Origin: Bacteroidales bacterium
GTDB lineage: Bacteria > Bacteroidota > Bacteroidia > Bacteroidales > VadinHA17
Length of the DNA stretch: 64,000 bases
Direction of reading: 5' to 3'
Assembly: GCA_016715075.1 (NCBI GenBank)
Contig: JADKBK010000005.1
Location: 20,541-84,540 of the forward strand
Shown piece after piece: positions 2,624 through 46,840 of this stretch. Numbering within the stretch: the stretch's first letter is position 1; each line of letters opens with the position of its first letter. The position numbers and the translations under genes were made by a program. The notes under the pieces are model-generated. The model worked only from the letters and a program-made list of their open reading frames with translations, was not told the origin of the DNA and did not search any database.

Positions 2624-5296
2624 ATGGTAACACTATCGGTGATTACAAAAATTACATACTCTTCTCTTTTTCTGCTTATTGTATCGGTAAATTTATTGGG
2701 ACAGGCCACTAAAACTGCTACTGATAAAAATAGTGATTACTCATATTTCAGGGGGGGCTCAATGAGTGTTGTTCCTTCCTCGCATCAGGATATTGCATGG
2801 ATGGACAGCATTGGCAAGTGCATCGAGTTTCGCGATGAGAAGATGATTACTCCTGTACTTGCGAGACTAAAGGCCAATAGTGATTTTAAGTTTTCAGTCG
2901 AAGACGGATTAAGTCTCAGGGAATATCTACAGAGGCATCCTGATTCATATGATGAGATCCTGAAGTATACCCGTGAAGGCCGCCTGGAATGGGGAGCCAC
3001 CTACAAGCAACCCTATGAATCTATGTATGATGGTGAGTCACTTATACGGCAGGCTTACCTGGGCAGGAAATGGCTTAAAAAAACACTTCCCGGCTGCGAC
3101 TCTAAGGTTTACTGGAATGAGGATGTCCCCGGACGCTCATTGCAGATGGCACAGATCCTGTCAAAATCTGGAATACCCTATATGCAGTTCAGCAGGCACC
3201 AGCCTGGTATCTACAGATGGTACAGTCCAGATGGAAGTTATATAACCTGCTATACACCGGGGCAATATGATGAGGTTGGCATACCTGTGAGAGAGGCAAA
3301 AACAGACATTGTTCCGCTTACAAAAGCCTTTACATCCATTATGACCGAGTGGAATGATTATTATAAAAAGAGGAAAATAAAGCCTGAATTGCAGTTCCTC
3401 TATTCACATGATTTTGCAACCCCTCCGGATTATGATGCTTTTTTTAATGACTGGAATTCAAAATCACAGAAGCAGGGTAAACCCACGATAAATTATGCTA
3501 CAGCAACCGAATGGTTCGATGCAGTTACAAAAGGCAAACCGGCTTTTGACAAAATACTTGGGGAAAGACCTGATGTATGGCTGTATATTCACGGCCCTTC
3601 ACATCAGAGAGCGCTAAAGGCATCCAGGGAAGGGTCCCGTCTTCTTACAGCTGCCGAGAAATTTGCAACCTTCGATGCTCTTCAGCAGGGATCATTCAGG
3701 GATTATCCCCAGGCATCTTTTACAAAAGCATGGGAAAATGCAATCTATCCCGACCACGGCTGGGGAGGTAAACATGGAGACATGACCGACAGAACATTCC
3801 GGACAGTTTATGAAACTGCAAGAACAATAGCATCGGGTATACTCGAAAAATCCATGAACAACATTGCCGGACGGATTAAACATACCAATGATGCAATCCC
3901 TGTTACTGTTTTCAATACCCTTTCCTGGGAACGGACTGACATTGTTAAATTCACACTCGATGCAGAAGGGAAACCCGAGAACACTTACAGACTGACCGAC
4001 CAGAATGGCCGGGAGATCGCTTATCAGCTTATTGATGAACATCAGATCAAAGGGAACAGGGATGAGGTTATTACATTCCTTTTTGTAGCAGACAATGTTC
4101 CTTCACTTGGCTATAAAACATATTATCTTGAGAATGGCAAGCCTTCACCTGTCTCTGATTCATTCAAAAATAACAACCGGAGCTATGAGAACACCTATTA
4201 TAAAGTTGATTTCTCAGATGGAGGTATTAAATCGCTGTATGATAAAGAATTATCTGTCAATCTGCTGAATACGGATAAGTTCCTCGGAGCGGAGCTGTTC
4301 ACTATGCAATCTGTTGGCAACGGAGCAGGGGAGTTCACCGATGTTCAGCTTCCGACAATGGAAGGATTCGCTAAAATGAGCCAGTTTGGTCAGCAATGGT
4401 CACTGGTTTCAGAAGGAGCTCTGAGGGATGTTTATGAATTCAGAAAGGAGATCAGCAATGTTACAGTTGTGCAACAGTTGATTTTCTATAAAACTATAAA
4501 ACGTATAGATATACACGTTGAACTGAATGGTTTTAACGGAGAGCGCTACCGTGAGTTCAGGCTTGCATTTCCTGTAAATCAGGCAAAATCTGAAGTTGCC
4601 TATGAGGTTCCGATGGGTGTGGTAAGGATTGGTAAGGATGAAATTGCAGGGGCTGCCGGATTCTCAAAGGCTTCACAGATCTATGATACACCGTGTTCCC
4701 AGGTTCACCCGCGTGAAGTTCAGGACTGGTTCTCTGCATCTGATGGCACAACCGGAATAACTATAAGCTCGGATGTGGCAGTTTTCGACTGGATTGATCC
4801 TACCTCAAACCCTGAGGGTTATACTATTCTTCAACCCGTGCTGCTGGCAAGTCGTAAGAGCTGTCATGGAGAAGGTAATTATTATCTTCAGCCTGGCGAT
4901 CATAACTACACATTTTCATTCTATTCTTACGGCGGAGACTGGAAAAACGGTTACCGATACGGCACACAGTCGAATCAGCCTTTGAAGGCAGTTGCTGCTA
5001 AACCGACTAGTGGCGGTACAATGCCAGAAACAATGAGTTTCATTTCCATTGAGAACAAAAATCTTATACTCAGCACAGTTAAAAAATGTGAAGATGACGA
5101 TAATGTGATAGTCAGATGCTACGATATTGAAGGTAAAGACAGTGATGCCAAAATAACTCTTTCCTCTCCAGTTCAGAAAGCTGAACTGACAAACATGATT
5201 GAGGAAGAGGGCAAATTGATTCCGGGAAGCGGCGCTTCGCTTAATCTGAGTGTGGGGCATAACGCAATTGAAACTGTAAAGTTGTTCGTAAAATAG
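2624..5296 (+). CDS. GH38 alpha-mannosidase (secreted)
   Basis: Hydrophobic N-terminus. GH38 motifs SSHQDIAWMD and WNEDVPGRSLQMAQIL are present. It shares long blocks with the 5556..8246 paralogue: ERPDVWLYIHGPSH, IYPDHGWGGK, FTMQSVGNGAGEF, AYEVPMGVV, LASRKSCH. Confidence 0.85.
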   Translation: MVTLSVITKITYSSLFLLIVSVNLLGQATKTATDKNSDYSYFRGGSMSVVPSSHQDIAWMDSIGKCIEFRDEKMITPVLARLKANSDFKFSVEDGLSLREYLQRHPDSYDEILKYTREGRLEWGATYKQPYESMYDGESLIRQAYLGRKWLKKTLPGCDSKVYWNEDVPGRSLQMAQILSKSGIPYMQFSRHQPGIYRWYSPDGSYITCYTPGQYDEVGIPVREAKTDIVPLTKAFTSIMTEWNDYYKKRKIKPELQFLYSHDFATPPDYDAFFNDWNSKSQKQGKPTINYATATEWFDAVTKGKPAFDKILGERPDVWLYIHGPSHQRALKASREGSRLLTAAEKFATFDALQQGSFRDYPQASFTKAWENAIYPDHGWGGKHGDMTDRTFRTVYETARTIASGILEKSMNNIAGRIKHTNDAIPVTVFNTLSWERTDIVKFTLDAEGKPENTYRLTDQNGREIAYQLIDEHQIKGNRDEVITFLFVADNVPSLGYKTYYLENGKPSPVSDSFKNNNRSYENTYYKVDFSDGGIKSLYDKELSVNLLNTDKFLGAELFTMQSVGNGAGEFTDVQLPTMEGFAKMSQFGQQWSLVSEGALRDVYEFRKEISNVTVVQQLIFYKTIKRIDIHVELNGFNGERYREFRLAFPVNQAKSEVAYEVPMGVVRIGKDEIAGAAGFSKASQIYDTPCSQVHPREVQDWFSASDGTTGITISSDVAVFDWIDPTSNPEGYTILQPVLLASRKSCHGEGNYYLQPGDHNYTFSFYSYGGDWKNGYRYGTQSNQPLKAVAAKPTSGGTMPETMSFISIENKNLILSTVKKCEDDDNVIVRCYDIEGKDSDAKITLSSPVQKAELTNMIEEEGKLIPGSGASLNLSVGHNAIETVKLFVK

Positions 5297-5320
5297 ATTA
5301 GTATATTTAACAACTCCGGC

Positions 5321-5465
5321 GCAGTTGAAAAAGTCCTCTGTGGAACTCTGTGATACCTCTGTGCTCTCTGTGTAAGTTTTTAATTTTTAGTTACACAGAG
5401 ATCCACAGAGAATTCACAGAGGCACACAGAGAAAGACAGTTAGAAGCTGCAACTTTTTCAACAGC
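5321..5465. repeat. Composite palindromic element, 4x CTCTGTG facing 4x CACAGAG
   Basis: CTCTGTG at 5336, 5346, 5357, 5366. CACAGAG at 5394, 5404, 5415, 5425. Outer inverted pair gcagttgaaaaagt / actttttcaacagc. A sister copy lies at 22580-22724. Confidence 0.8.
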
Positions 5466-5555
5466 CACTTACCCGAATGGGGAAATGATTTATTTAGTTA
5501 CATCCAAAGAATTGGTGATTTTAAATATATTTCAAAGACCGACTATAAATTTCCT

Positions 5556-8246
5556 ATGAAGAAGATAATAATCACATTAACATTTTCTCTTTTAATTCTT
5601 AATACTTCACATTCCCAGGTAGTAAACGGGGTTTTGAAATGCAAGGATGAGACATTTGGTCTTTTAAAAGAGATCTCAGGATCAGTATGTTCAAAGGGAG
5701 AGATCTTATTATCTATAACAACCCACCAGGATCTTGGCTGGGTAGATGAAGTGGAAAAGTGCATTATTCTGAGAGATACCCTGTGGCTTACACCATATCT
5801 TAAAAGACTTAAGGAAGATCCAGGATTTAAGATGGATATTGAGCAGACATCAATAATTATCGAATACCTGAACCGTCACCCCGATAAAAAAGCCGAGATA
5901 CAGAAAGGCCTTGACGAAGGAAGAATATTGATAGGGGCGACATTTACACAGCCTTATGAAGAGCTTTTCAGCGGCGAAGCACTGATAAGACAGCTCTACC
6001 TGGGCAAGAAATGGCTTTCTGACAATTTTAACGGCTACCAATCTGATACTTACTATAATTCTGATGTTCCGGGACGTACCCTGCAGATGTCTCAGATACT
6101 GGCTAAATCAGGTGTGAAAAATATGTTTGTGAGCCGCCATGAAAAAGGAGTTTATAACTGGTTCAGTCCCGACAACTCATTTGTTACAATGTTCTCATCA
6201 GGGCACTATATTGATTTTTTCAATATCCTCGGACTGGAGAGCGAAGAGGGCATTGCCCGGATGGCAAAAGAGGTTTCGTTCTGGGGCAGCTATTATGATA
6301 CTGATTCTAAAGAAGTAATAATTCCGGCTCTCCTGAATTATGAGTTTATATGGGATCAGAAACCTGTTAAGAACTGTGATCCTTTCATCAGCAGGTGGAA
6401 CAGCATATCATATATTGAAAATCAAAAAGGAGAGAAGATAAAAGTTTCACTTCCTCCCTTCAGATATGGTAATCTGAATACATGTCTGAATACTATCAGA
6501 GATAATTCAAAAAAGATCAGGGATATTTCAGGAGAGCGTCCGGCTGTGTGGTTATACATACATGGGCCATCTCATCATTTCGCTATTTCAGCAAGCAGGA
6601 AAGCAGACATACTCCTTCCTGATGCTGAGAAGTTCGCTGCTATAAACTGTTTGCTTGAGGGCAGTTTCAGGCATTATGATGAGGAAAAATTCAGGGAAGC
6701 CTGGGAAGCAAAGATCTATCCCGATCATGGATGGGGAGGTAAGGGAGGAGAGATAACCGACAGGCTTTTCCTCAGCAAATTTGTCAAGTCGTGTGAAGAT
6801 GCATCCTTCCTGCTGGACAATGCTCTTCAGAGAATTGCTTCGAGGATTGAATTTAAGAAGACCGGTATTCCAGTTGTTGTTTTTAATGGTCTGAACTGGA
6901 AGAGAAATGATCCGGTTAGCTTGATCCTGACATTCAAAAAAGGAGAAGCATTTGGATTAAACCTGTTTGATGCCCTAAGTAAACCCGTAATGAGCCAGCT
7001 GAGTGGGAAGGAGTTTTTTGATGATGGATCATTAAAATCATGTAATGTAACCTTTATAGCTTCAGACATTCCCTCAGTTGGGTACAGCACTTTTTATGCC
7101 GAACCATTGAAAAAAGCAGAGATCAATAAAGCATTATCTTTCAGTCATGATTTTGAAAATCAATTCTTTGCAATACAATTTGGAAAGGGCGGGATTGAAA
7201 AGCTCTTCGACAAACAACTCGGGAAAGAGATTATTGATGCATCAAAGTTCAGGCTGGGTGAGGTCTTCACTATGCAATCTGTAGGCAACGGAGCCGGTGA
7301 ATTTTCTGATGTTCAGCAGCCATCGATGGAGGGTTATGACAAGACAGGGAATTATCTCACACCCTGGGAAAAAATTGCTGATGGTCCTGTTTATTCATCT
7401 TTCAGGTACCGCCAGCCGGTCCGCTATGCTGTAGTTGAAGAGACAGTGATCATTTATAACCAGATAAAAAGAATTGACTTTGAGATAGATATTAAAAACT
7501 GGCAGGGAATTCTTTACAGGGAATTCAGGGCAGCCTTTCCACTGAATATGAGTTCCCCGGAAATTGCATATGAAGTCCCAATGGGTGTTGTGGAAGTAGG
7601 GAAGGACGAGCTGAAAGGTCCGGCCGGAAATAATTATTCTACTGATTGCAGGCTAATTCACCCAAGGACTATGGTTGACTGGGTGAATGCTTCAGGCGAA
7701 GGCTTTGGTGCAACAATAAGTTCAAGCGTCATTGCATTTGATTATCTGGATCCTACAACCAATCCGACTTCAAAAACTCTGATTCAGCCTATCCTTTTTG
7801 CATCAAGGAAAAGCTGCCACTGGGAGGGGAATGATTATATTCAGCTTGGAGACCATCATTTTTCATTCTCCCTGTATATTCAGGAACCAGGATGGAGAAA
7901 CGGATCCCATTCCGGTAAGCAGGGACAAAACATGCTCTATACAGTTCTTGATCCTTTGCGGTCTCAAGACAGAAAACTTCCTGAAAAACAAAGCTTTATA
8001 ACAACTGAAGGCGATCAGTTGCTACTCACCGCCTTTAAGAAAAGCGGTGATGACAACAGCCTTATAATCCGCCTGGCTGAAATGAATGGTAGCAGTCAGA
8101 AGATAGGACTCCACCTGTTTACTCCTTTTCAGAATCTTAAAAAAACCAATATAATTGAAGAGGACGAAAAGGATACCGGACAGAAAGGAATGAACTATAG
8201 TCTTGATATTGGCAAAAACTCAATTGAAACATATAAGTTAAAATAA
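5556..8246 (+). CDS. GH38 alpha-mannosidase (secreted), paralogue of 2624..5296
   Basis: Signal peptide MKKIIITLTFSLLILNTSHSQ. Motifs TTHQDLGWVDE and YNSDVPGRTLQMSQIL are present, plus the same conserved blocks as the neighbouring GH38. Confidence 0.85.
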   Translation: MKKIIITLTFSLLILNTSHSQVVNGVLKCKDETFGLLKEISGSVCSKGEILLSITTHQDLGWVDEVEKCIILRDTLWLTPYLKRLKEDPGFKMDIEQTSIIIEYLNRHPDKKAEIQKGLDEGRILIGATFTQPYEELFSGEALIRQLYLGKKWLSDNFNGYQSDTYYNSDVPGRTLQMSQILAKSGVKNMFVSRHEKGVYNWFSPDNSFVTMFSSGHYIDFFNILGLESEEGIARMAKEVSFWGSYYDTDSKEVIIPALLNYEFIWDQKPVKNCDPFISRWNSISYIENQKGEKIKVSLPPFRYGNLNTCLNTIRDNSKKIRDISGERPAVWLYIHGPSHHFAISASRKADILLPDAEKFAAINCLLEGSFRHYDEEKFREAWEAKIYPDHGWGGKGGEITDRLFLSKFVKSCEDASFLLDNALQRIASRIEFKKTGIPVVVFNGLNWKRNDPVSLILTFKKGEAFGLNLFDALSKPVMSQLSGKEFFDDGSLKSCNVTFIASDIPSVGYSTFYAEPLKKAEINKALSFSHDFENQFFAIQFGKGGIEKLFDKQLGKEIIDASKFRLGEVFTMQSVGNGAGEFSDVQQPSMEGYDKTGNYLTPWEKIADGPVYSSFRYRQPVRYAVVEETVIIYNQIKRIDFEIDIKNWQGILYREFRAAFPLNMSSPEIAYEVPMGVVEVGKDELKGPAGNNYSTDCRLIHPRTMVDWVNASGEGFGATISSSVIAFDYLDPTTNPTSKTLIQPILFASRKSCHWEGNDYIQLGDHHFSFSLYIQEPGWRNGSHSGKQGQNMLYTVLDPLRSQDRKLPEKQSFITTEGDQLLLTAFKKSGDDNSLIIRLAEMNGSSQKIGLHLFTPFQNLKKTNIIEEDEKDTGQKGMNYSLDIGKNSIETYKLK

Positions 8247-13720: not shown

Positions 13721-13730
13721 TTTTAATTGC

Positions 13731-13810
13731 CACAAAGGCACAAAGGCATAAAGGCATAAAGGCACAAAGGCGCAAAGGCACAAAGGCACAAAGGCATAAA
13801 GGCATAAAAC
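13731..13810. repeat. Octamer tandem array, 10 x CA(C/T)AAAGG
   Basis: Read directly. It is followed by three approximate inverse boxes (TTGATG / CTTGATG / CCTTGATGG) at 13829-13854. Confidence 0.9.
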
Positions 13811-17535: not shown

Positions 17536-20511
17536 ATGAGACTCCTTTTACCCCTAATCATCTCCGTTTTTTACCTAAGCACTATCTCGGGTAATCAGAT
17601 TGAAATTCCATATTCTGTTCCTGCAAAACCATGGCCTGAATCTTTCGGAAACCATAGGGCAGTTCTTCATATCTCAAATCCATCAGAGGTTGTTACACTG
17701 GATATTTTGTGGCGCCGGCATGATCCTGACCCGGATACCAGACGCTTTCTGATCATTAATGCATCAAGCGGCGACACAATTTCAAATATTTTCCGGTATA
17801 AGGTAAATAATGAAGAGTGCCGGATAGCATTCGGTCCTGTGAAAATGGCCGGAACTTACTATTTCTATTATCTGCCTTATGACATACAGGAGGAATGGGG
17901 CTTTTATGGGAAGGATTATCTGAAACGGGAGAGTGATCCTTCAGGAGAATGGCTGCTGAAGAATCATGTTAACAGACCTTCAAGATCAAAGAGTTTTGTT
18001 GCTGCCAGTATTACTGATTTTCAATCCCGCTTCGCATTCGATTCATTTTACCCTATGGAGGTAATAGCTCTTTTATCTGAAAAATCAGTGCTTCTTGAAA
18101 AATACACCAATGACTGGCTTGTATTCCCGGAGGACAGGTCATATCCGATCCGCATGCGCGATGAGATACCACTGAGATGGATACGTCAGGGACCATCAGA
18201 ACAGTTTACCGGTGAAGCACTGAAGAATGAATACTATGCTTTTCAGATCGGGGTATATGCATCAAAGGCCGGTCTTCAAAATCTGAAAGTTGAGTTTACA
18301 TCCCTGCAGGGCGCAAGTGTCAAAATCCCTGCTTCCTCGCTTACCTGTTTCAATACAGGAGGAATAGGACCATATGGTAAACCTTTTGAGAAGCGGGTCG
18401 ATGTAGGCCTCGGAATGGTTCAGCCCCTCTGGATAGGAATTGATATACCAGAGGCTATTCCTGCCGGCACCTATACGGGATCAGTCATAATTAAACCTGA
18501 AAATGCCAGGCCGCAGACTATAAAAATTTCACTTAAAATTGCGGATAAGATCATTGCAGATCGTGGTGATAGTGAACCATGGCGTCATTCACGGTTACGA
18601 TGGCTAAACTCTACTCTGGGTATTGATGATAAGACTGTTAAACCATATAAACCTATTGAATTTCTGGGTAATAACACCTATCGTCTTACTGAAAAAATTC
18701 TAAGAATGGACGATGGAGGAATGCCCGGGTCAATAAATGTATCCGGGACAGAACTTCTTTCAGATCCGATCTCATTCGTTGTTGAATCAGGTAAGGGCTT
18801 TGAGAAATTTACTTTGCCGGAAGATATATCCCTGATTAAAAACAAACCGGGGGCAATTGGAGGATCGTGGAGATGCCATTCTGACGGTTTTGAACTGACC
18901 GGAACAGGAATGGTAGAAGCTGATGGGTACATAAATTATAAAATAAAAATCAGAGCCCTCAGGGACATTTCCCTGAAGGATGTCAGGCTGGAGATTCCAT
19001 TTGCCGGGAACGTTGCACAGTATATAATAGGCATGGGGTTACCGGGAACTGTTGTGCCTGAGGCACATCAGGCACCATGGAGTGGCCCGTTTGACAGTTT
19101 CTGGATGGGTAATACTTATGCAGGTCTATGGTGCGAACTGAGGGGCGGAAGCTATAATGGTCCGCTGCTTAACCTGTACAATCCTGCCCCTCCGGCTTCA
19201 TGGTATAATAATGATAACGGCGGCTTCAGGATAACAAAAAACCAGTCGGGAACAAATGCAGTTGTTTACAGTGGAGCCAGGGAATTAAAATCAGGTGAAA
19301 AACTTGATTTTGAATGGTCAATGCTTATAACACCAGTTAAAAAAATCAATACAGGGAGCCAGTTCACAGACCGGTATTATCATAATGGAGGCAACCCAAT
19401 GCCATCCGATGCCGACCTGTCATGCGGTGTGAAGATAGTCAACCTCCATCATGCCAATAACTATAATCCGCATATCAATTACCCTTTTATTGCAACAGAC
19501 TCAATGAGATGGTTTGTTGATAAGATGCATTCAAAAGGACAGAAGGTAAAGATCTATTACACAATCCGCGAACTCACTAATTACACTACTGAGATCTGGG
19601 CACTTCGCAGCCTTGGCGATGAAATACTCGGTAATGGTGATGGCGGAGGATATACATGGCTCAGGGAACACTTTATTTCCGGTTACAGGCCTCAGTGGTA
19701 TCAGCACTTTCCGGATAAAAGTCCTGATGCATCTATTGTCAATGCACCTGGGGATTCCAGGTGGTATAACTATTATATCGAAGGACTGGCCTGGCTTGTC
19801 AGAAATGTTGATATAGATGGTTTGTACCTCGATGATGTTACTTATGACAGAAGAACTGTCAAGCGGATCAGAAAAGTACTTGACAATGAAAAGCCGGGCT
19901 GTATACTCGAGCTGCATTCCAATACCGGTTTTTCGAAAGGGCCTGCAAATCAGTATGCTGAATATTTCCCGTATATTGATAAGATATGGTTTGGAGAGAG
20001 CTTTTTATATGATAAAATGTCACCCGGGAACTGGCTTGTCGAAACCTCAGGTATCCCTTTCGGACTGATGGGCGATATGCTTCAGGGTGGAGGTAACAGA
20101 TGGAGAGGGATGGTTTATGGTATGACTGTACGTCATCCCTGGACAACAGAAGGGGTGCTTTGTGATCCTCGTCCTGTGTGGAAAATCTGGGATGAATTTG
20201 GAATTGAGTCTTCTGTAATGAAAGGATACTGGCAGAATGACTGTCCGGTCAAAACAGATCGTCCTGATGTTAAAGCTACTATCTATCTGAAAAATGGAGA
20301 ATCCCTTTTATCAGTGGCCAGCTGGGCTGAAGACCCGGTAAAGTTTTTATTGAAATTCGACTGGAAAGTTCTCGGGATAGATCCCTCGAAAGCTGAGCTG
20401 TACGCTCCTTCTGTTGAGAATTTTCAGGAAGAGAGGAGTTTTAGACCTGACGAAACTATCCCTGTGGAACCAGGAAAGGGCTGGATGATTATTGTGAAGG
20501 AGAAAAAGTAA
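17536..20511 (+). CDS. Large secreted putative glycoside hydrolase (GH123/DUF4091-like), family uncertain
   Basis: 991 aa with a signal peptide. The C-terminal TIM-barrel-like region (NLHHANNYNPHINYPF, KVKIYYTIRELT, DIDGLYLDDVTYDR, LELHSNTGF) reminds me of DUF4091/GH123-type proteins. The ORF is clear, but the family call is weak. Confidence 0.4.
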   Translation: MRLLLPLIISVFYLSTISGNQIEIPYSVPAKPWPESFGNHRAVLHISNPSEVVTLDILWRRHDPDPDTRRFLIINASSGDTISNIFRYKVNNEECRIAFGPVKMAGTYYFYYLPYDIQEEWGFYGKDYLKRESDPSGEWLLKNHVNRPSRSKSFVAASITDFQSRFAFDSFYPMEVIALLSEKSVLLEKYTNDWLVFPEDRSYPIRMRDEIPLRWIRQGPSEQFTGEALKNEYYAFQIGVYASKAGLQNLKVEFTSLQGASVKIPASSLTCFNTGGIGPYGKPFEKRVDVGLGMVQPLWIGIDIPEAIPAGTYTGSVIIKPENARPQTIKISLKIADKIIADRGDSEPWRHSRLRWLNSTLGIDDKTVKPYKPIEFLGNNTYRLTEKILRMDDGGMPGSINVSGTELLSDPISFVVESGKGFEKFTLPEDISLIKNKPGAIGGSWRCHSDGFELTGTGMVEADGYINYKIKIRALRDISLKDVRLEIPFAGNVAQYIIGMGLPGTVVPEAHQAPWSGPFDSFWMGNTYAGLWCELRGGSYNGPLLNLYNPAPPASWYNNDNGGFRITKNQSGTNAVVYSGARELKSGEKLDFEWSMLITPVKKINTGSQFTDRYYHNGGNPMPSDADLSCGVKIVNLHHANNYNPHINYPFIATDSMRWFVDKMHSKGQKVKIYYTIRELTNYTTEIWALRSLGDEILGNGDGGGYTWLREHFISGYRPQWYQHFPDKSPDASIVNAPGDSRWYNYYIEGLAWLVRNVDIDGLYLDDVTYDRRTVKRIRKVLDNEKPGCILELHSNTGFSKGPANQYAEYFPYIDKIWFGESFLYDKMSPGNWLVETSGIPFGLMGDMLQGGGNRWRGMVYGMTVRHPWTTEGVLCDPRPVWKIWDEFGIESSVMKGYWQNDCPVKTDRPDVKATIYLKNGESLLSVASWAEDPVKFLLKFDWKVLGIDPSKAELYAPSVENFQEERSFRPDETIPVEPGKGWMIIVKEKK

Positions 20512-20530: not shown

Positions 20531-20616
20531 CTACGGAGTTACGCGGAGTTATTACAGAGTTCCACTGTTTAGGCCTCCGTGTTTTACTCCGTGCAACACT
20601 GTGCAACTCCGTGGTT
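20531..20616. repeat. Palindromic box element, opposite polarity (3x NCGGAG/ACAGAG facing 4x CTCCGTG/CACTGTG)
   Basis: ctacggag, acgcggag and ttacagag on the left. ctccgtg, ctccgtg, cactgtg and ctccgtgg on the right. Ends in GTGGTTTTA. Confidence 0.7.
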
Positions 20617-20656: not shown

Positions 20657-21412
20657 ATGTCGAATCACAAGAAAACACTTATGTTGCTGGTTGTAACAGC
20701 TCTCACGTTATCATTCGTATATGCCCAGGAAGGAATGATCTCCTTCGGGAAATCCTCATCCTTAGACAGGGCGCTGTTTAAGACAAAGGAGAAAGAAATA
20801 CCTCTTCTCTGGAAGAATGTTAATACTGCACCTGATACCTGGCATCTTGAAAAAGATCTCCTGGTTTGTTCCGGCCATCCTATCGGAGTAATGCGGTCAG
20901 AGAAGCAGTATGAGAATTTCATCCTTCACATAGAGTGGATGCACATGGAACCGGGCGGTAATTCCGGGACCTTTGTATGGAGCAATGCCACTCCTCCTGA
21001 GGGGGGCAATCTGCCTAATGGAGTTGAGGTTCAGATGCTTGAGCTTGAATGGGTCAGACTTAATACTAAAGACGGAGTTGTTCCACCAATAGCATATGTT
21101 CATGGTGAACTTTTTGGAGTTGGCGGAGTTGAAACGGTACCGGATACCCCCAGAGGCACAAGAAGCAAATCAATTGAGAACCGTTGCAAGGGGAAGGGGG
21201 AATGGAATATTTATGATGTCGTTTGTGTTGACGGTGTGGTGAAGCTTTCAGTGAACGGTAAATTTGTGAACGGAATTGCGAAAGCAACGCAGAAAAAAGG
21301 TTATATATGTCTTGAATCGGAAGGAGCGGAGATACATTTCCGGAATATCAGGATTATTGAATTGCCTTCCGGTGTTATTACCCCTGAACAAATAGCAAAT
21401 GAGTTAAAATGA
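20657..21412 (+). CDS. DUF1080 (3-keto-disaccharide hydrolase-like) domain protein, secreted
   Basis: Signal peptide. [35 protein letters not shown] and [22 protein letters not shown] are typical DUF1080 concanavalin-like blocks. Confidence 0.7.
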
Positions 21413-22539: not shown

Positions 22540-22579
22540 TTTAACTGATCTCTTTATTTATTACAGATTCTGTATCTTT

Positions 22580-22724
22580 CTCTGTGAAACTCTGTGCTCC
22601 CGATAGTCATCGGGACTCTGTGATCTCTGTGTAAGTTCTTAGCTTAATATTACACAGAGAGCACAGAGAATACACGGAGTAACACAGAGATAGCTGCAGT
22701 TGCAGAATCGAATTTCTCAACAGC
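22580..22724. repeat. Composite palindromic element, sister of 5321-5465
   Basis: CTCTGTG at 22580, 22590, 22616, 22625. CACAGAG/CACGGAG at 22653, 22662, 22673, 22683. Nested hairpin cccgat/atcggg at 22599-22614. Tail tagctgcag...atttctcaacagc. Confidence 0.8.
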
Positions 22725-22776
22725 ATCCCGGAGTTCTTTATTTAAATAAACTATTAATATTCAAATATATATAATC

Positions 22777-46372: not shown

Positions 46373-46515
46373 TTTGGTTTCGTTTGATTCATACTACAAA
46401 ATCCGTAAGAGTAAATTTAGTGATTTCTGCCGGTTTGGAATTGGAAGAAACTCCGGAATATATCAGAATTGAAATGTATCTGAATTGTTAAATTTTCGGG
46501 CATGAACTTTTATTT

Positions 46516-46586
46516 TACCATGGATTACTCGGAGATTTTTTTTACCACGGATTACATGGAGGACACGGAGTAAGCACGGAAAAAAA
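46516..46586. repeat. Left arm of the GxxExxY cassette (CGGAG/CACGGA boxes)
   Basis: ttaccatggattactcggag and tttaccacggattacatggaggacacggagtaagcacgga. accacggatta (46544-46554) is the exact reverse complement of taatccgtggt (46816-46826). Confidence 0.7.
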
Positions 46587-46658
46587 CCCTGAATCAATTT
46601 ATGCCCGGAAAAATAAAAAATCGTAATTCTATTAGTCGTCTCGCTAAAAACTAATAAT

Positions 46659-46797
46659 ATGGAACTACTGTACAGGGAATGAACTGGTACAATCGTGGAC
46701 TGTGCTGTTAACGTTCATAGATTTTTAGGGCCCGGGCTTCTGGAATCAGCGTATGAAGAGTGACTTCAATATAAGTTATACGAATATGTATTAAAAA
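46659..46797 (+). pseudogene. Remnant of a GxxExxY-family protein gene (N-terminal ~45 codons, two in-frame TGA)
   Basis: MELLYRE*TGTIVDCAVNVHRFLGPGLLESAYEE*LQYKLYEYVLK contains the family-defining G-LL-E-SA-Y motif. The ~80 C-terminal residues are absent and the reading frame runs into the right repeat arm. Confidence 0.65.
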
Positions 46798-46798
46798 C

Positions 46799-46840
46799 TT
46801 TCCGTGCTCTCCGTGTAATCCGTGGTTAAATAAAAGAATT
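46799..46840. repeat. Right arm plus conserved tail of the GxxExxY cassette
   Basis: ttccgtg, ctctccgtg, taatccgtggttaaataaaagaatt. The tail is near-identical to ccagtggctaaataaaagaat at 61707-61727. Confidence 0.7.

Follow-up and report, generated by a model that had tools for sequence, protein, structure and literature searches.

Among the described systems closest to the element studied here are short repeats and cassettes of three kinds. Repetitive extragenic palindromic sequences (REPs) are single hairpins of 20-40 bp that carry a GTAG or CGTC tag and are mobilised by the IS200/IS605-type tyrosine (HUH) enzyme RAYT (PMC3733652). Intervening sequences (IVSs) of 23S rRNA, as in Coxiella and Leptospira, can contain an internal open reading frame (ORF) for an S23p, or four-helix-bundle, protein and form stems that are cut by RNase III (PMC4990558). 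TAACTGA heptamer repeats occur in Beggiatoaceae, Cyanobacteria and Bacteroidetes as tandem direct arrays, with one indirect set among 170, and have been proposed to be regulator sites (PMC4679880). The subject of this work is a 145-nt palindrome at positions 5321-5465 of a 64,000-nt stretch of a Bacteroidales genome (contig JADKBK010000005.1, positions 20,541 to 84,540; hereafter the window, with all coordinates counted from its first letter). Our data give good support to the conclusion that this palindrome is a gene-less relative of the ends of GxxExxY nuclease cassettes, and belongs to a family of box arrays that crosses phyla. The full-length form of the family is a cassette of about 480 bp in which usually three CRCNRAG boxes (R boxes) are followed by a GxxExxY gene and then by a mirror array of CTYNGYG boxes (F boxes).

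The left arm of the palindrome (5336-5372) comprises four CTCTGTG boxes, at 5336, 5346, 5357 and 5366, separated by the spacers gaa, atac and ct. It faces, across an AT-rich 21-nt loop (taagtttttaatttttagtta, 5373-5393), a right arm (5394-5431) of four CACAGAG boxes at 5394, 5404, 5415 and 5425 with the spacers atc, aatt and gca. The boxes are enclosed by an outer 11-bp stem (GTTGAAAAAGT / ACTTTTTCAAC, 5324-5334 / 5452-5462), and the tails of the element are gcagttgaaaaagt (5321-5334) and agctgcaactttttcaacagc (5445-5465). The box positions, AT-rich centre and tails are exactly those given in an earlier note on this DNA, and the long imperfect hairpin proposed there is borne out by RNA folding of 5315-5470, which returns one long bulged hairpin of -70.1 kcal/mol (z = -9.8, with 0/200 shuffles as good). 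All eight boxes are perfect and of a single variant, and the mirrored spacer pairs ct/atc, atac/aatt and gaa/gca are all non-complementary, which argues that the boxes themselves, and not just a stem, have been kept. The heptamer is found 17 times in the window as against 5.7 +/- 2.3 times in shuffles (maximum 13), and 15 of the 17 lie in this palindrome and one sister copy. The element, defined from sequence and fold and given no strand, starts 25 nt past the stop codon of a glycoside hydrolase family 38 (GH38) gene (2624-5296) and ends 90 nt ahead of the start of a second GH38 gene (5556-8246). There is no ORF in its 21-nt loop. The absence of a GxxExxY gene between or next to the arrays makes it a gene-less relative, as most copies of the family are.

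The sister copy, likewise without an assigned strand, occupies 22580-22724, with CTCTGTG boxes at 22580, 22590, 22616 and 22625 facing CACAGAG or CACGGAG boxes at 22653, 22662, 22673 and 22683 (4+4 boxes, of which one is CACGGAG). RNA folding of 22570-22730 gives -71.1 kcal/mol (z = -8.4). The two copies have in common their loop (TAAGTT...TTA) and right tail (AGCTGCA...TCAACAGC), so their homology extends beyond the boxes. In the left arm of the 22580 copy, the second spacer contains a nested 18-nt GC-rich mini-hairpin (22598-22615, CCCGATAGTCATCGGG plus flanking bases), which is missing from the 5321 copy and from the related copy L028. Each of the two palindromes lies in a gap between co-directional genes, at 25-40 nt from the preceding stop codon. 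We refer to their arrangement, with CTCTGTG-type boxes first and CACAGAG-type boxes second, as type A, and to the mirror order, with CACGGAG-type boxes first and CTCCGTG-type boxes second, as type B; type B cannot be converted into type A by reverse complementation.

The earlier note did not recognise the element as a member of a named repeat family, and in accord with this it has no Rfam match and no REP-type tag. The Rfam check suggested at that time (release 15) gives no hits in the window at gathering thresholds, and a local permissive scan produced only microRNA-hairpin noise and a TwoAYGGAY match of 19.6 bits against a threshold of 43. Among 20 related loci, the only Rfam hit is 5_ureB_sRNA at L191:982-1267, outside the cassette arrays of that locus. 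We found no description of these arrays in open-access papers and bioRxiv; an earlier description elsewhere is possible. Identification as a REP, or as one of the bacterial interspersed mosaic elements (BIMEs), is rejected because neither copy has a GTAG or CGTC tag at its arm ends, and because the arms are 37 nt and the element 145 nt long. A 23S rRNA IVS is rejected because the 5321 element lies between two GH38 genes and the window contains no rRNA by Rfam. Integron attC sites have RYYYAAC ... GTTRRRY core sites and stand beside an integrase or a cassette array. Here the outer consensus is TTNAC-C, which has A at N in only about a third of arms and misfits RYYYAAC generally, and the neighbouring genes examined by Pfam are glycoside hydrolases, with no integrase. 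The element is also, as previously remarked, far more elaborate than an intrinsic terminator, and no terminator-like site, of the kind formed by a short GC-rich stem and a T-run, was detected in 5200-5620.

The family was also approached from the gene. The sampled GxxExxY genes have a near-obligate link to box arrays, their cassettes are of foreign base composition, and gene-less copies are in excess. We took 80 GxxExxY genes from metagenomes by protein pattern alone, 75 of them with enough flanking sequence, and defined a box as CRCNRAG or its complement and an array as at least two boxes at an 8-14 nt period within 150 nt of the gene. An array accompanies the gene in 71/75 cases, compared with any array in 4/40 windows at a distance of 500 nt. 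The canonical arrangement (CRCNRAG)x3 - gene - (CTYNGYG)x3, mostly with 3+3 boxes, occurs in 51/75 loci and 0/40 control windows. The cassettes have a median length of 484 nt, with the arms at a median of 29 nt ahead of the start codon and 16 nt past the stop, and between the last box and the start codon there are 0 to 129 nt. The G+C content of the gene is below that of its flanks in 65/69 loci (0.49 versus 0.56, p = 4e-12). The box variant differs among cassettes (CACAGAG, CGCAGAG, CACGGAG, CACGAAG, CGCAAAG and others), and TTNAC precedes the outermost box, giving cassette outer ends of TTNAC-C / G-GTNAA. A textbook cassette is present in the cultured species Bacteroides finegoldii, between radA and the gene for an FAD-dependent protein.

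The 5321 palindrome can be placed directly within this scheme. Each of its arms is an array in the sense of the family (at least three CRCNRAG boxes at an 8-12 nt period), with 4+4 boxes at 9-11 nt, and the two arrays face one another as inverted repeats of a single box variant. Tandem cassettes (L154, L147) form F-loop-R junctions, which is the type A topology, and in the 5321 element it is likewise the outer ends of the two four-box arms that face one another across the 21-nt loop.

Some further features of the cassettes were seen in passing. Among cassettes L122-L200 (for example L154, L170 and L146), the innermost R box often resembles a Shine-Dalgarno sequence (AAAGGAG, AAGGA, GAAGGG) and lies 5-8 nt ahead of the ATG. 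Since the F boxes are complementary to such a box, the nuclease gene could have its ribosome-binding site masked by the stem. Many GxxExxY genes were found on contigs of about 1 kb. The 1075-nt contig of L147 repeats its own start at its end, and contig L330 begins (1-40) inside an arm of the type found at 20531 in the window. Arrays may be places where short-read assemblies break. They are also a source of spurious ORFs, in which peptide runs like HRGHRE or SVSSV appear.

The pattern of conservation within the arms points to the boxes and not merely to pairing. Agreement between the two arms of one element reaches 94-95% at the variable box positions 2 and 5, as compared with 50-58% for arms of different elements, and is only 58% at position 4 and 60% in the spacers. 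Gene-less palindromes show the same pattern, with 65-75% at position 4 and 44-59% in the spacers. A free central position is not predicted by pairing alone, and sequence-specific recognition of CRC-N-RAG is therefore the simpler reading. The proposal in the earlier note that the boxes form an array of protein-binding sites is compatible with these data as far as it concerns boxes that are kept while spacers drift (44-60% complementary) and position 4 varies (58-75%), but the part of it that relied on phasing is not. Among 201 intervals in cassette arms, the dominant box period is 9 nt (130 intervals), which is not a helical turn, followed by 10 nt (41), 8 nt (14), 11 nt (10) and 12 nt (6), and helical phasing is thus not a property of the family. 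The nucleotide after the box is G in 164/303 cases, giving GAGG or AAGG; Bacteroidota boxes are followed by A or T.

Gene-less copies are widespread. When one genome per species was scanned for three exact CTCTGTG boxes, at least 120 loci were found, in Acidobacteriota, Planctomycetota, Bacteroidota, Chloroflexota, Verrucomicrobiota, Cyanobacteria, Gemmatimonadota and several proteobacterial classes. The facing pairs among the genome loci listed are 81 of type B and 29 of type A (29/110), with interiors mostly of 10-250 nt. Among the matches listed, the exact CTCTGTG arrays are nearly all gene-less hairpins or single arms, and a GxxExxY gene or remnant is present in only 3/120 loci. A profile search of 43 hairpin interiors recovered only the intact gene of L097 and a remnant in L105 (0/43 controls), and this scarcity of remnants indicates that most gene-less copies are not recently decayed cassettes. 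The 4+4 form of type A is found again in Acidobacteriota (Pyrinomonadaceae) and in another Bacteroidales metagenome-assembled genome (L028), where the loop is the same TAAGTT...TTA as in the window copies. Tandem runs of boxes also occur, as in L020. The same three-box scan of IMG/VR contigs yielded at least 120 viral loci. Among these are phage-like contigs with phage structural and HNH genes, which have as many as about 10 arrays in the gaps between genes. Two of them, L269 (400-13800) and L244 (9500-13400), have many intergenic arrays together with genes for a head closure protein, an HNH endonuclease and a ParB-like protein and no GxxExxY gene; they contain F-arms in groups of two or three, with AGAGAAAATCTTTTAAA after every arm, as well as loops that are complementary to this tail. 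A BLAST comparison of the element with plasmids gave no match, and inspection of 186 array-adjacent ORFs showed no obvious second recurrent cargo, although genes for four-helix-bundle (IVS) proteins may be flanked in a similar way.

Comparison of orthologous loci, as recommended in the earlier note, reveals that the presence of the element differs among relatives at both the 22580 and the 5321 sites. The source, a Bacteroidales metagenome-assembled genome, has its affinities with Prolixibacteraceae/Mariniphaga. At the 22580 site, relative L330 (neighbouring protein 87% identical) has an unrelated 129-nt spacer with no box array, and a contig of P0249 has only a 17-nt gap. At the 5321 site, L201 (an 80% relative) has a different member of the family, a type B element with CGCAAAG boxes. 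Retention is also seen: in the stretch compared, contig L330 (87% relative) begins with sequence that matches the right arm of the 20531 element and the DNA downstream of it, and a single arm like that at 2510 is found at the same position in relative L203, with neighbouring proteins 85-87% identical in the relatives that retain these arms. Sites that are element-free, differently filled or retained among relatives imply gain, replacement and, in some cases, persistence of the elements. The second GH38 gene is missing from most relatives, so that synteny around 5321 differs, and a clean empty site was not found there. The gap upstream of the GH38 orthologue in L201 (2474-3501) contains a degenerate box array (CACAAGG/CGCAAAG...CTTTGCG) and, beside it, a decayed small endonuclease-like ORF (...LGFTVLRFDNRFVFQEPEYLKNEIRKVFNK) flanked by GC-rich hairpins, CCCCTCCTTTNAAGGAGGGG. 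This ORF looks DUF559/Vsr-like, and together with its hairpins it may represent a second kind of mini nuclease cassette with hairpin ends of its own.

The GxxExxY protein (PF13366/TIGR04256, PDDEXK_3) is a 125-residue member of the PD-(D/E)XK nuclease family. Residues E27, D67, E77 and K79 are invariant and probably constitute the PD-(D/E)XK catalytic set. The AlphaFold model is confident, with a pLDDT (predicted local distance difference test score) of 92.8, and the solved structures closest to it in fold are Cas4 SSO0001, lambda exonuclease, tRNA-splicing endonuclease and Hjc, each of them a weak, generic PD-(D/E)XK match (E >= 1e-3). No solved structure was matched by sequence, and PADLOC registers only a faint similarity to Cas4. 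At E < 1e-10, the relatives recovered in one search number at least 8000. The family has been described as of unassigned function and subject to multiple inter-phylum transfers (PMC3424549). Box class follows the protein tree only loosely, being shared by 31/51 nearest neighbours compared with an estimated figure of about 16.

Set against described systems, the family shares several features with MITEs, the miniature inverted-repeat transposable elements. The window elements are small (about 85-330 bp), intergenic, multi-copy and non-coding, their terminal inverted repeats are the same in kind as those of the gene-carrying parent, gene-less copies far outnumber gene-carrying ones, sites are filled or not among close relatives, and arrays are also present in phage-like contigs. 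Unlike the parents of MITEs, however, the cassette has as its only gene a 125-residue PD-(D/E)XK nuclease, with no known transposase, its ends are tandem arrays of 7-nt boxes and not one continuous inverted repeat, and both head-to-head and tail-to-tail topologies exist. With IVSs it has in common a short selfish cassette (about 430-480 nt) with one small ORF, terminal inverted repeats that form a long transcript stem, a G+C content below that of the host, a sporadic, horizontally transferred distribution, and an origin and mobility that are unexplained; it differs in that its elements lie between protein-coding genes and not in 23S helices 9, 25 or 45, its cargo is a PD-(D/E)XK nuclease and not S23p, and its stems are periodic box arrays with internal loops and not a near-perfect 28-bp stem. 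Like REPs and BIMEs, the arrays are extragenic palindromic repeats of high copy number, single or in facing pairs, with a dedicated gene flanked by its own repeats, and the roles in mRNA stability and termination proposed for REPs are among those to which the arrays can be likened. They have no tag or RAYT, however, their arms consist of 3-4 heptamers, and the associated gene encodes an unrelated nuclease fold. The TAACTGA repeats are similar in being short intergenic heptamer arrays (2-6 copies), often near start codons, with a patchy cross-phylum spread that suggests horizontal transfer and no assigned function, but the present heptamer is different, is separated by 1-5 nt spacers in two facing arrays, and is tied to a specific gene family.

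A degenerate box scan of the whole window located six family loci with about 11 arms, all of them intergenic, in accord with the dispersed family of at least ten pieces anticipated by the earlier note. Recurrence of the same design, also claimed there, is correct for 22580-22724, but the elements reported at 20531-20616 and 46516-46840, which do fold, have the mirror topology: loci 20531 and 46507 show the canonical cassette order, with the R-array 5' and the F-array 3', and 5321 and 22580 the reverse. The element at 20531-20616 (no strand assigned) is a gene-less type B hairpin in which ACGGAG/GCGGAG/ACAGAG is followed by a short loop, by CTCCGTG/CTCCGTG/CACTGTG/CTCCGTG and then by GTTTTA. 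It folds with -36 kcal/mol (z = -4.1) and is flanked by a GH123 gene (17536-20511) and the gene at 20657-21412. The 46516-46840 locus exists as described, but the note had overlooked the decayed GxxExxY gene that it encloses, which is key to the identity of the family. This locus is a 330-nt type B cassette on the forward strand (46507-46836) with a decayed cargo gene and arms that are 85-90% complementary (fold z = -5.9). The left arm is duplicated (46507-46535 and 46536-46581), with CATGGAT/CTCGGAG/CACGGAT/CATGGAG/CACGGAG/CACGGAA boxes, and the right arm (46800-46836) reads TTCCGTG/CTCCGTG/ATCCGTG plus GTTAAA; the two copies of TTTTACCAYGGATTAC... in 46507-46581 each pair with the single right arm. 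The GxxExxY remnant (46659-46763, forward strand; translation MELLYRE*TGTIVDCAVNVHRFLGPGLLESAYEE*) has in-frame stops and has lost its C-terminal two thirds, leaving a decayed N-terminus that is nevertheless recognisable (tblastn E = 1.8e-5; TIGR04256 E = 1.9e-8, 34.7 bits). It is the only trace of GxxExxY detected by motif search of the window.

The two remaining loci are one-sided and on the forward strand. A single arm of 3 x CTTTGCG followed by GTTAA (2510-2543) lies upstream of the GH38 gene at 2624-5296. An expanded array at 13729-13810 consists of about 10 spacer-free units (GCACAAAG / GCATAAAG) with a period of 8 and looks like a slippage expansion of a single arm. Five of the six loci fall in the intergenic gaps of a dense run of same-strand carbohydrate genes (148-24189) that by Pfam includes two GH38 genes, a GH123 gene, a GH5-like gene and a gene for a 3-keto-disaccharide hydrolase; by comparison with orthologous loci, N-acetylglucosamine 2-epimerase-like and major facilitator superfamily sugar-transporter-like genes then follow.

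Membership in a widespread family that brackets a nuclease gene implies that the 5321 palindrome is most likely selfish, mobile-element-like DNA and not a regulator built by the host. Demography, foreign composition, turnover, presence in phage-like contigs and box conservation together point to selfish DNA that is recognised by a sequence-specific protein, and the conserved nuclease that the arrays bracket is the obvious candidate for the recogniser. We therefore read the palindrome, with moderate confidence, as a gene-less, MITE-like member of the selfish box-array family of GxxExxY cassettes. The boxes would then be putative sequence-specific recognition sites, most plausibly for GxxExxY nuclease supplied in trans, and the elements would spread or persist as selfish DNA, possibly by copying from array to array, initiated by the nuclease and using the arrays as regions of homology, or possibly through a cut-and-rejoin reaction of a kind not yet known. 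By analogy with the 23S rRNA IVSs, read-through from the surrounding sugar-utilisation genes might produce a long bulged hairpin that is tolerated or processed. A broader claim, that GxxExxY cassettes are an unrecognised minimal class of selfish element in which the nuclease recognises tandem CRCNRAG arrays and by means of them copies to other intergenic sites both itself and, in trans, thousands of gene-less hairpins across most bacterial phyla and their phages, is one that we put forward only tentatively.

Several observations weigh against a selfish, nuclease-recognised element. The 71/75 association was measured in a gene sample confined to the subfamily 52-70% identical to the query. The box regular expression fixes positions 1, 3 and 7, so their invariance is partly by construction. 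No amino-acid column convincingly co-varies with the box variant (best mutual information 0.44-0.48 versus a permutation 95% level of 0.41-0.43) in a test that is confounded by phylogeny. Four box variants coexist in the window, where no intact GxxExxY gene exists. Among the viral matches listed, 0/120 loci have a GxxExxY gene, and BLAST of GxxExxY against GenBank phages gave no match; arrays in phage-like contigs that lack the gene leave room for a host factor or a purely RNA-level role. Neither a target-site duplication nor the exact limits of an insertion could be defined, the flanks of the element-free sites at 22580 being too diverged. Finally, we know of no stand-alone PD-(D/E)XK hydrolase that catalyses transposition.

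An RNA-level role would mean that the transcribed hairpin serves the operon, as a site for processing by RNase III or another enzyme, an obstacle for 3' exonucleases or a terminator of non-canonical type between neighbouring glycoside-hydrolase genes, as has been suggested for REPs and BIMEs, with the GxxExxY link being only historical. The great stability of the hairpins would suit such a role, as would the intergenic position of all six window loci and that of the type A copies between co-directional genes 25-40 nt past a stop codon, the retention of two arms, the right one at 20531 and the single one at 2510, in relatives whose neighbouring protein is 85-87% identical, and the analogy with the RNase III-cut stems of 23S IVSs (PMC4990558). 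Complementarity exceeds chance at outer-flank positions and in some spacers, and type A copies from acidobacteria show compensatory spacer changes (caac/gttg versus aaaa/tttt). Selection for pairing alone is not, however, expected to conserve the letters of the boxes while spacers and box centres are so often non-complementary; single arms and one-sided expanded arrays are unable to fold, the region 5200-5620 lacks the T-run signature of a terminator, and both topologies and several box variants occur. At 22580, moreover, close relatives with the same gene order lack the element, which is thus dispensable there. On balance we consider it rather unlikely that the palindrome is a host-level RNA element.

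We think it improbable that the arrays are sites for a conserved host protein such as a post-transcriptional regulator, or for the translation apparatus through RAGG repeats facing anti-Shine-Dalgarno-like CCTY, and that GxxExxY and phages simply exploit them. There is a precedent in the TAACTGA heptamers proposed as regulator sites (PMC4679880), and such an origin would accommodate the GxxExxY-free arrays of phage-like contigs, which often lie just upstream of genes, the G that follows the box in 164/303 cases, and the innermost box that several cassettes have at Shine-Dalgarno distance from the ATG (in L154, AAAGGAG-8 nt-ATG). Against it, the interval from last box to start codon varies from 0 to 129 nt, and several box variants in one genome are hard to square with one conserved host factor. 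Shine-Dalgarno pairing is little used by Bacteroidota, whose boxes precede A or T. Host sites would also leave unexplained both the facing-array architecture and the tie of the arrays to one gene family in 71/75 cases. A palindrome of low complexity made by chance or slippage, with no family identity, has a negligible probability. One-sided expansion clearly happens, as at 13729-13810 with its period of 8 and in tandem runs such as L020, but such an origin is refuted for the palindrome by the excess of boxes (17 versus 5.7 expected, 15 of them in two loci), the loop and tail homology between copies, the same design in other phyla, and the specific association of arrays with GxxExxY genes.

The arrays suggest a testable role, that of a nuclease acting on its own flanking arrays, for GxxExxY (PF13366), a large family whose function is unassigned. 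Genes of this family are almost always bracketed by a recognisable signature that is also present across phyla as many gene-less hairpins, and for genome annotation the box arrays amount to a new kind of palindromic repeat. If the elements are indeed mobile, the cassette would represent a minimal mobile unit whose enzyme is unusual, and may offer a model for the movement of cassettes of the 23S IVS type. Should the GxxExxY cassettes prove to be a minimal class of selfish element, they would also show by what mechanism IVS-like cassettes move, which has long lacked an explanation.

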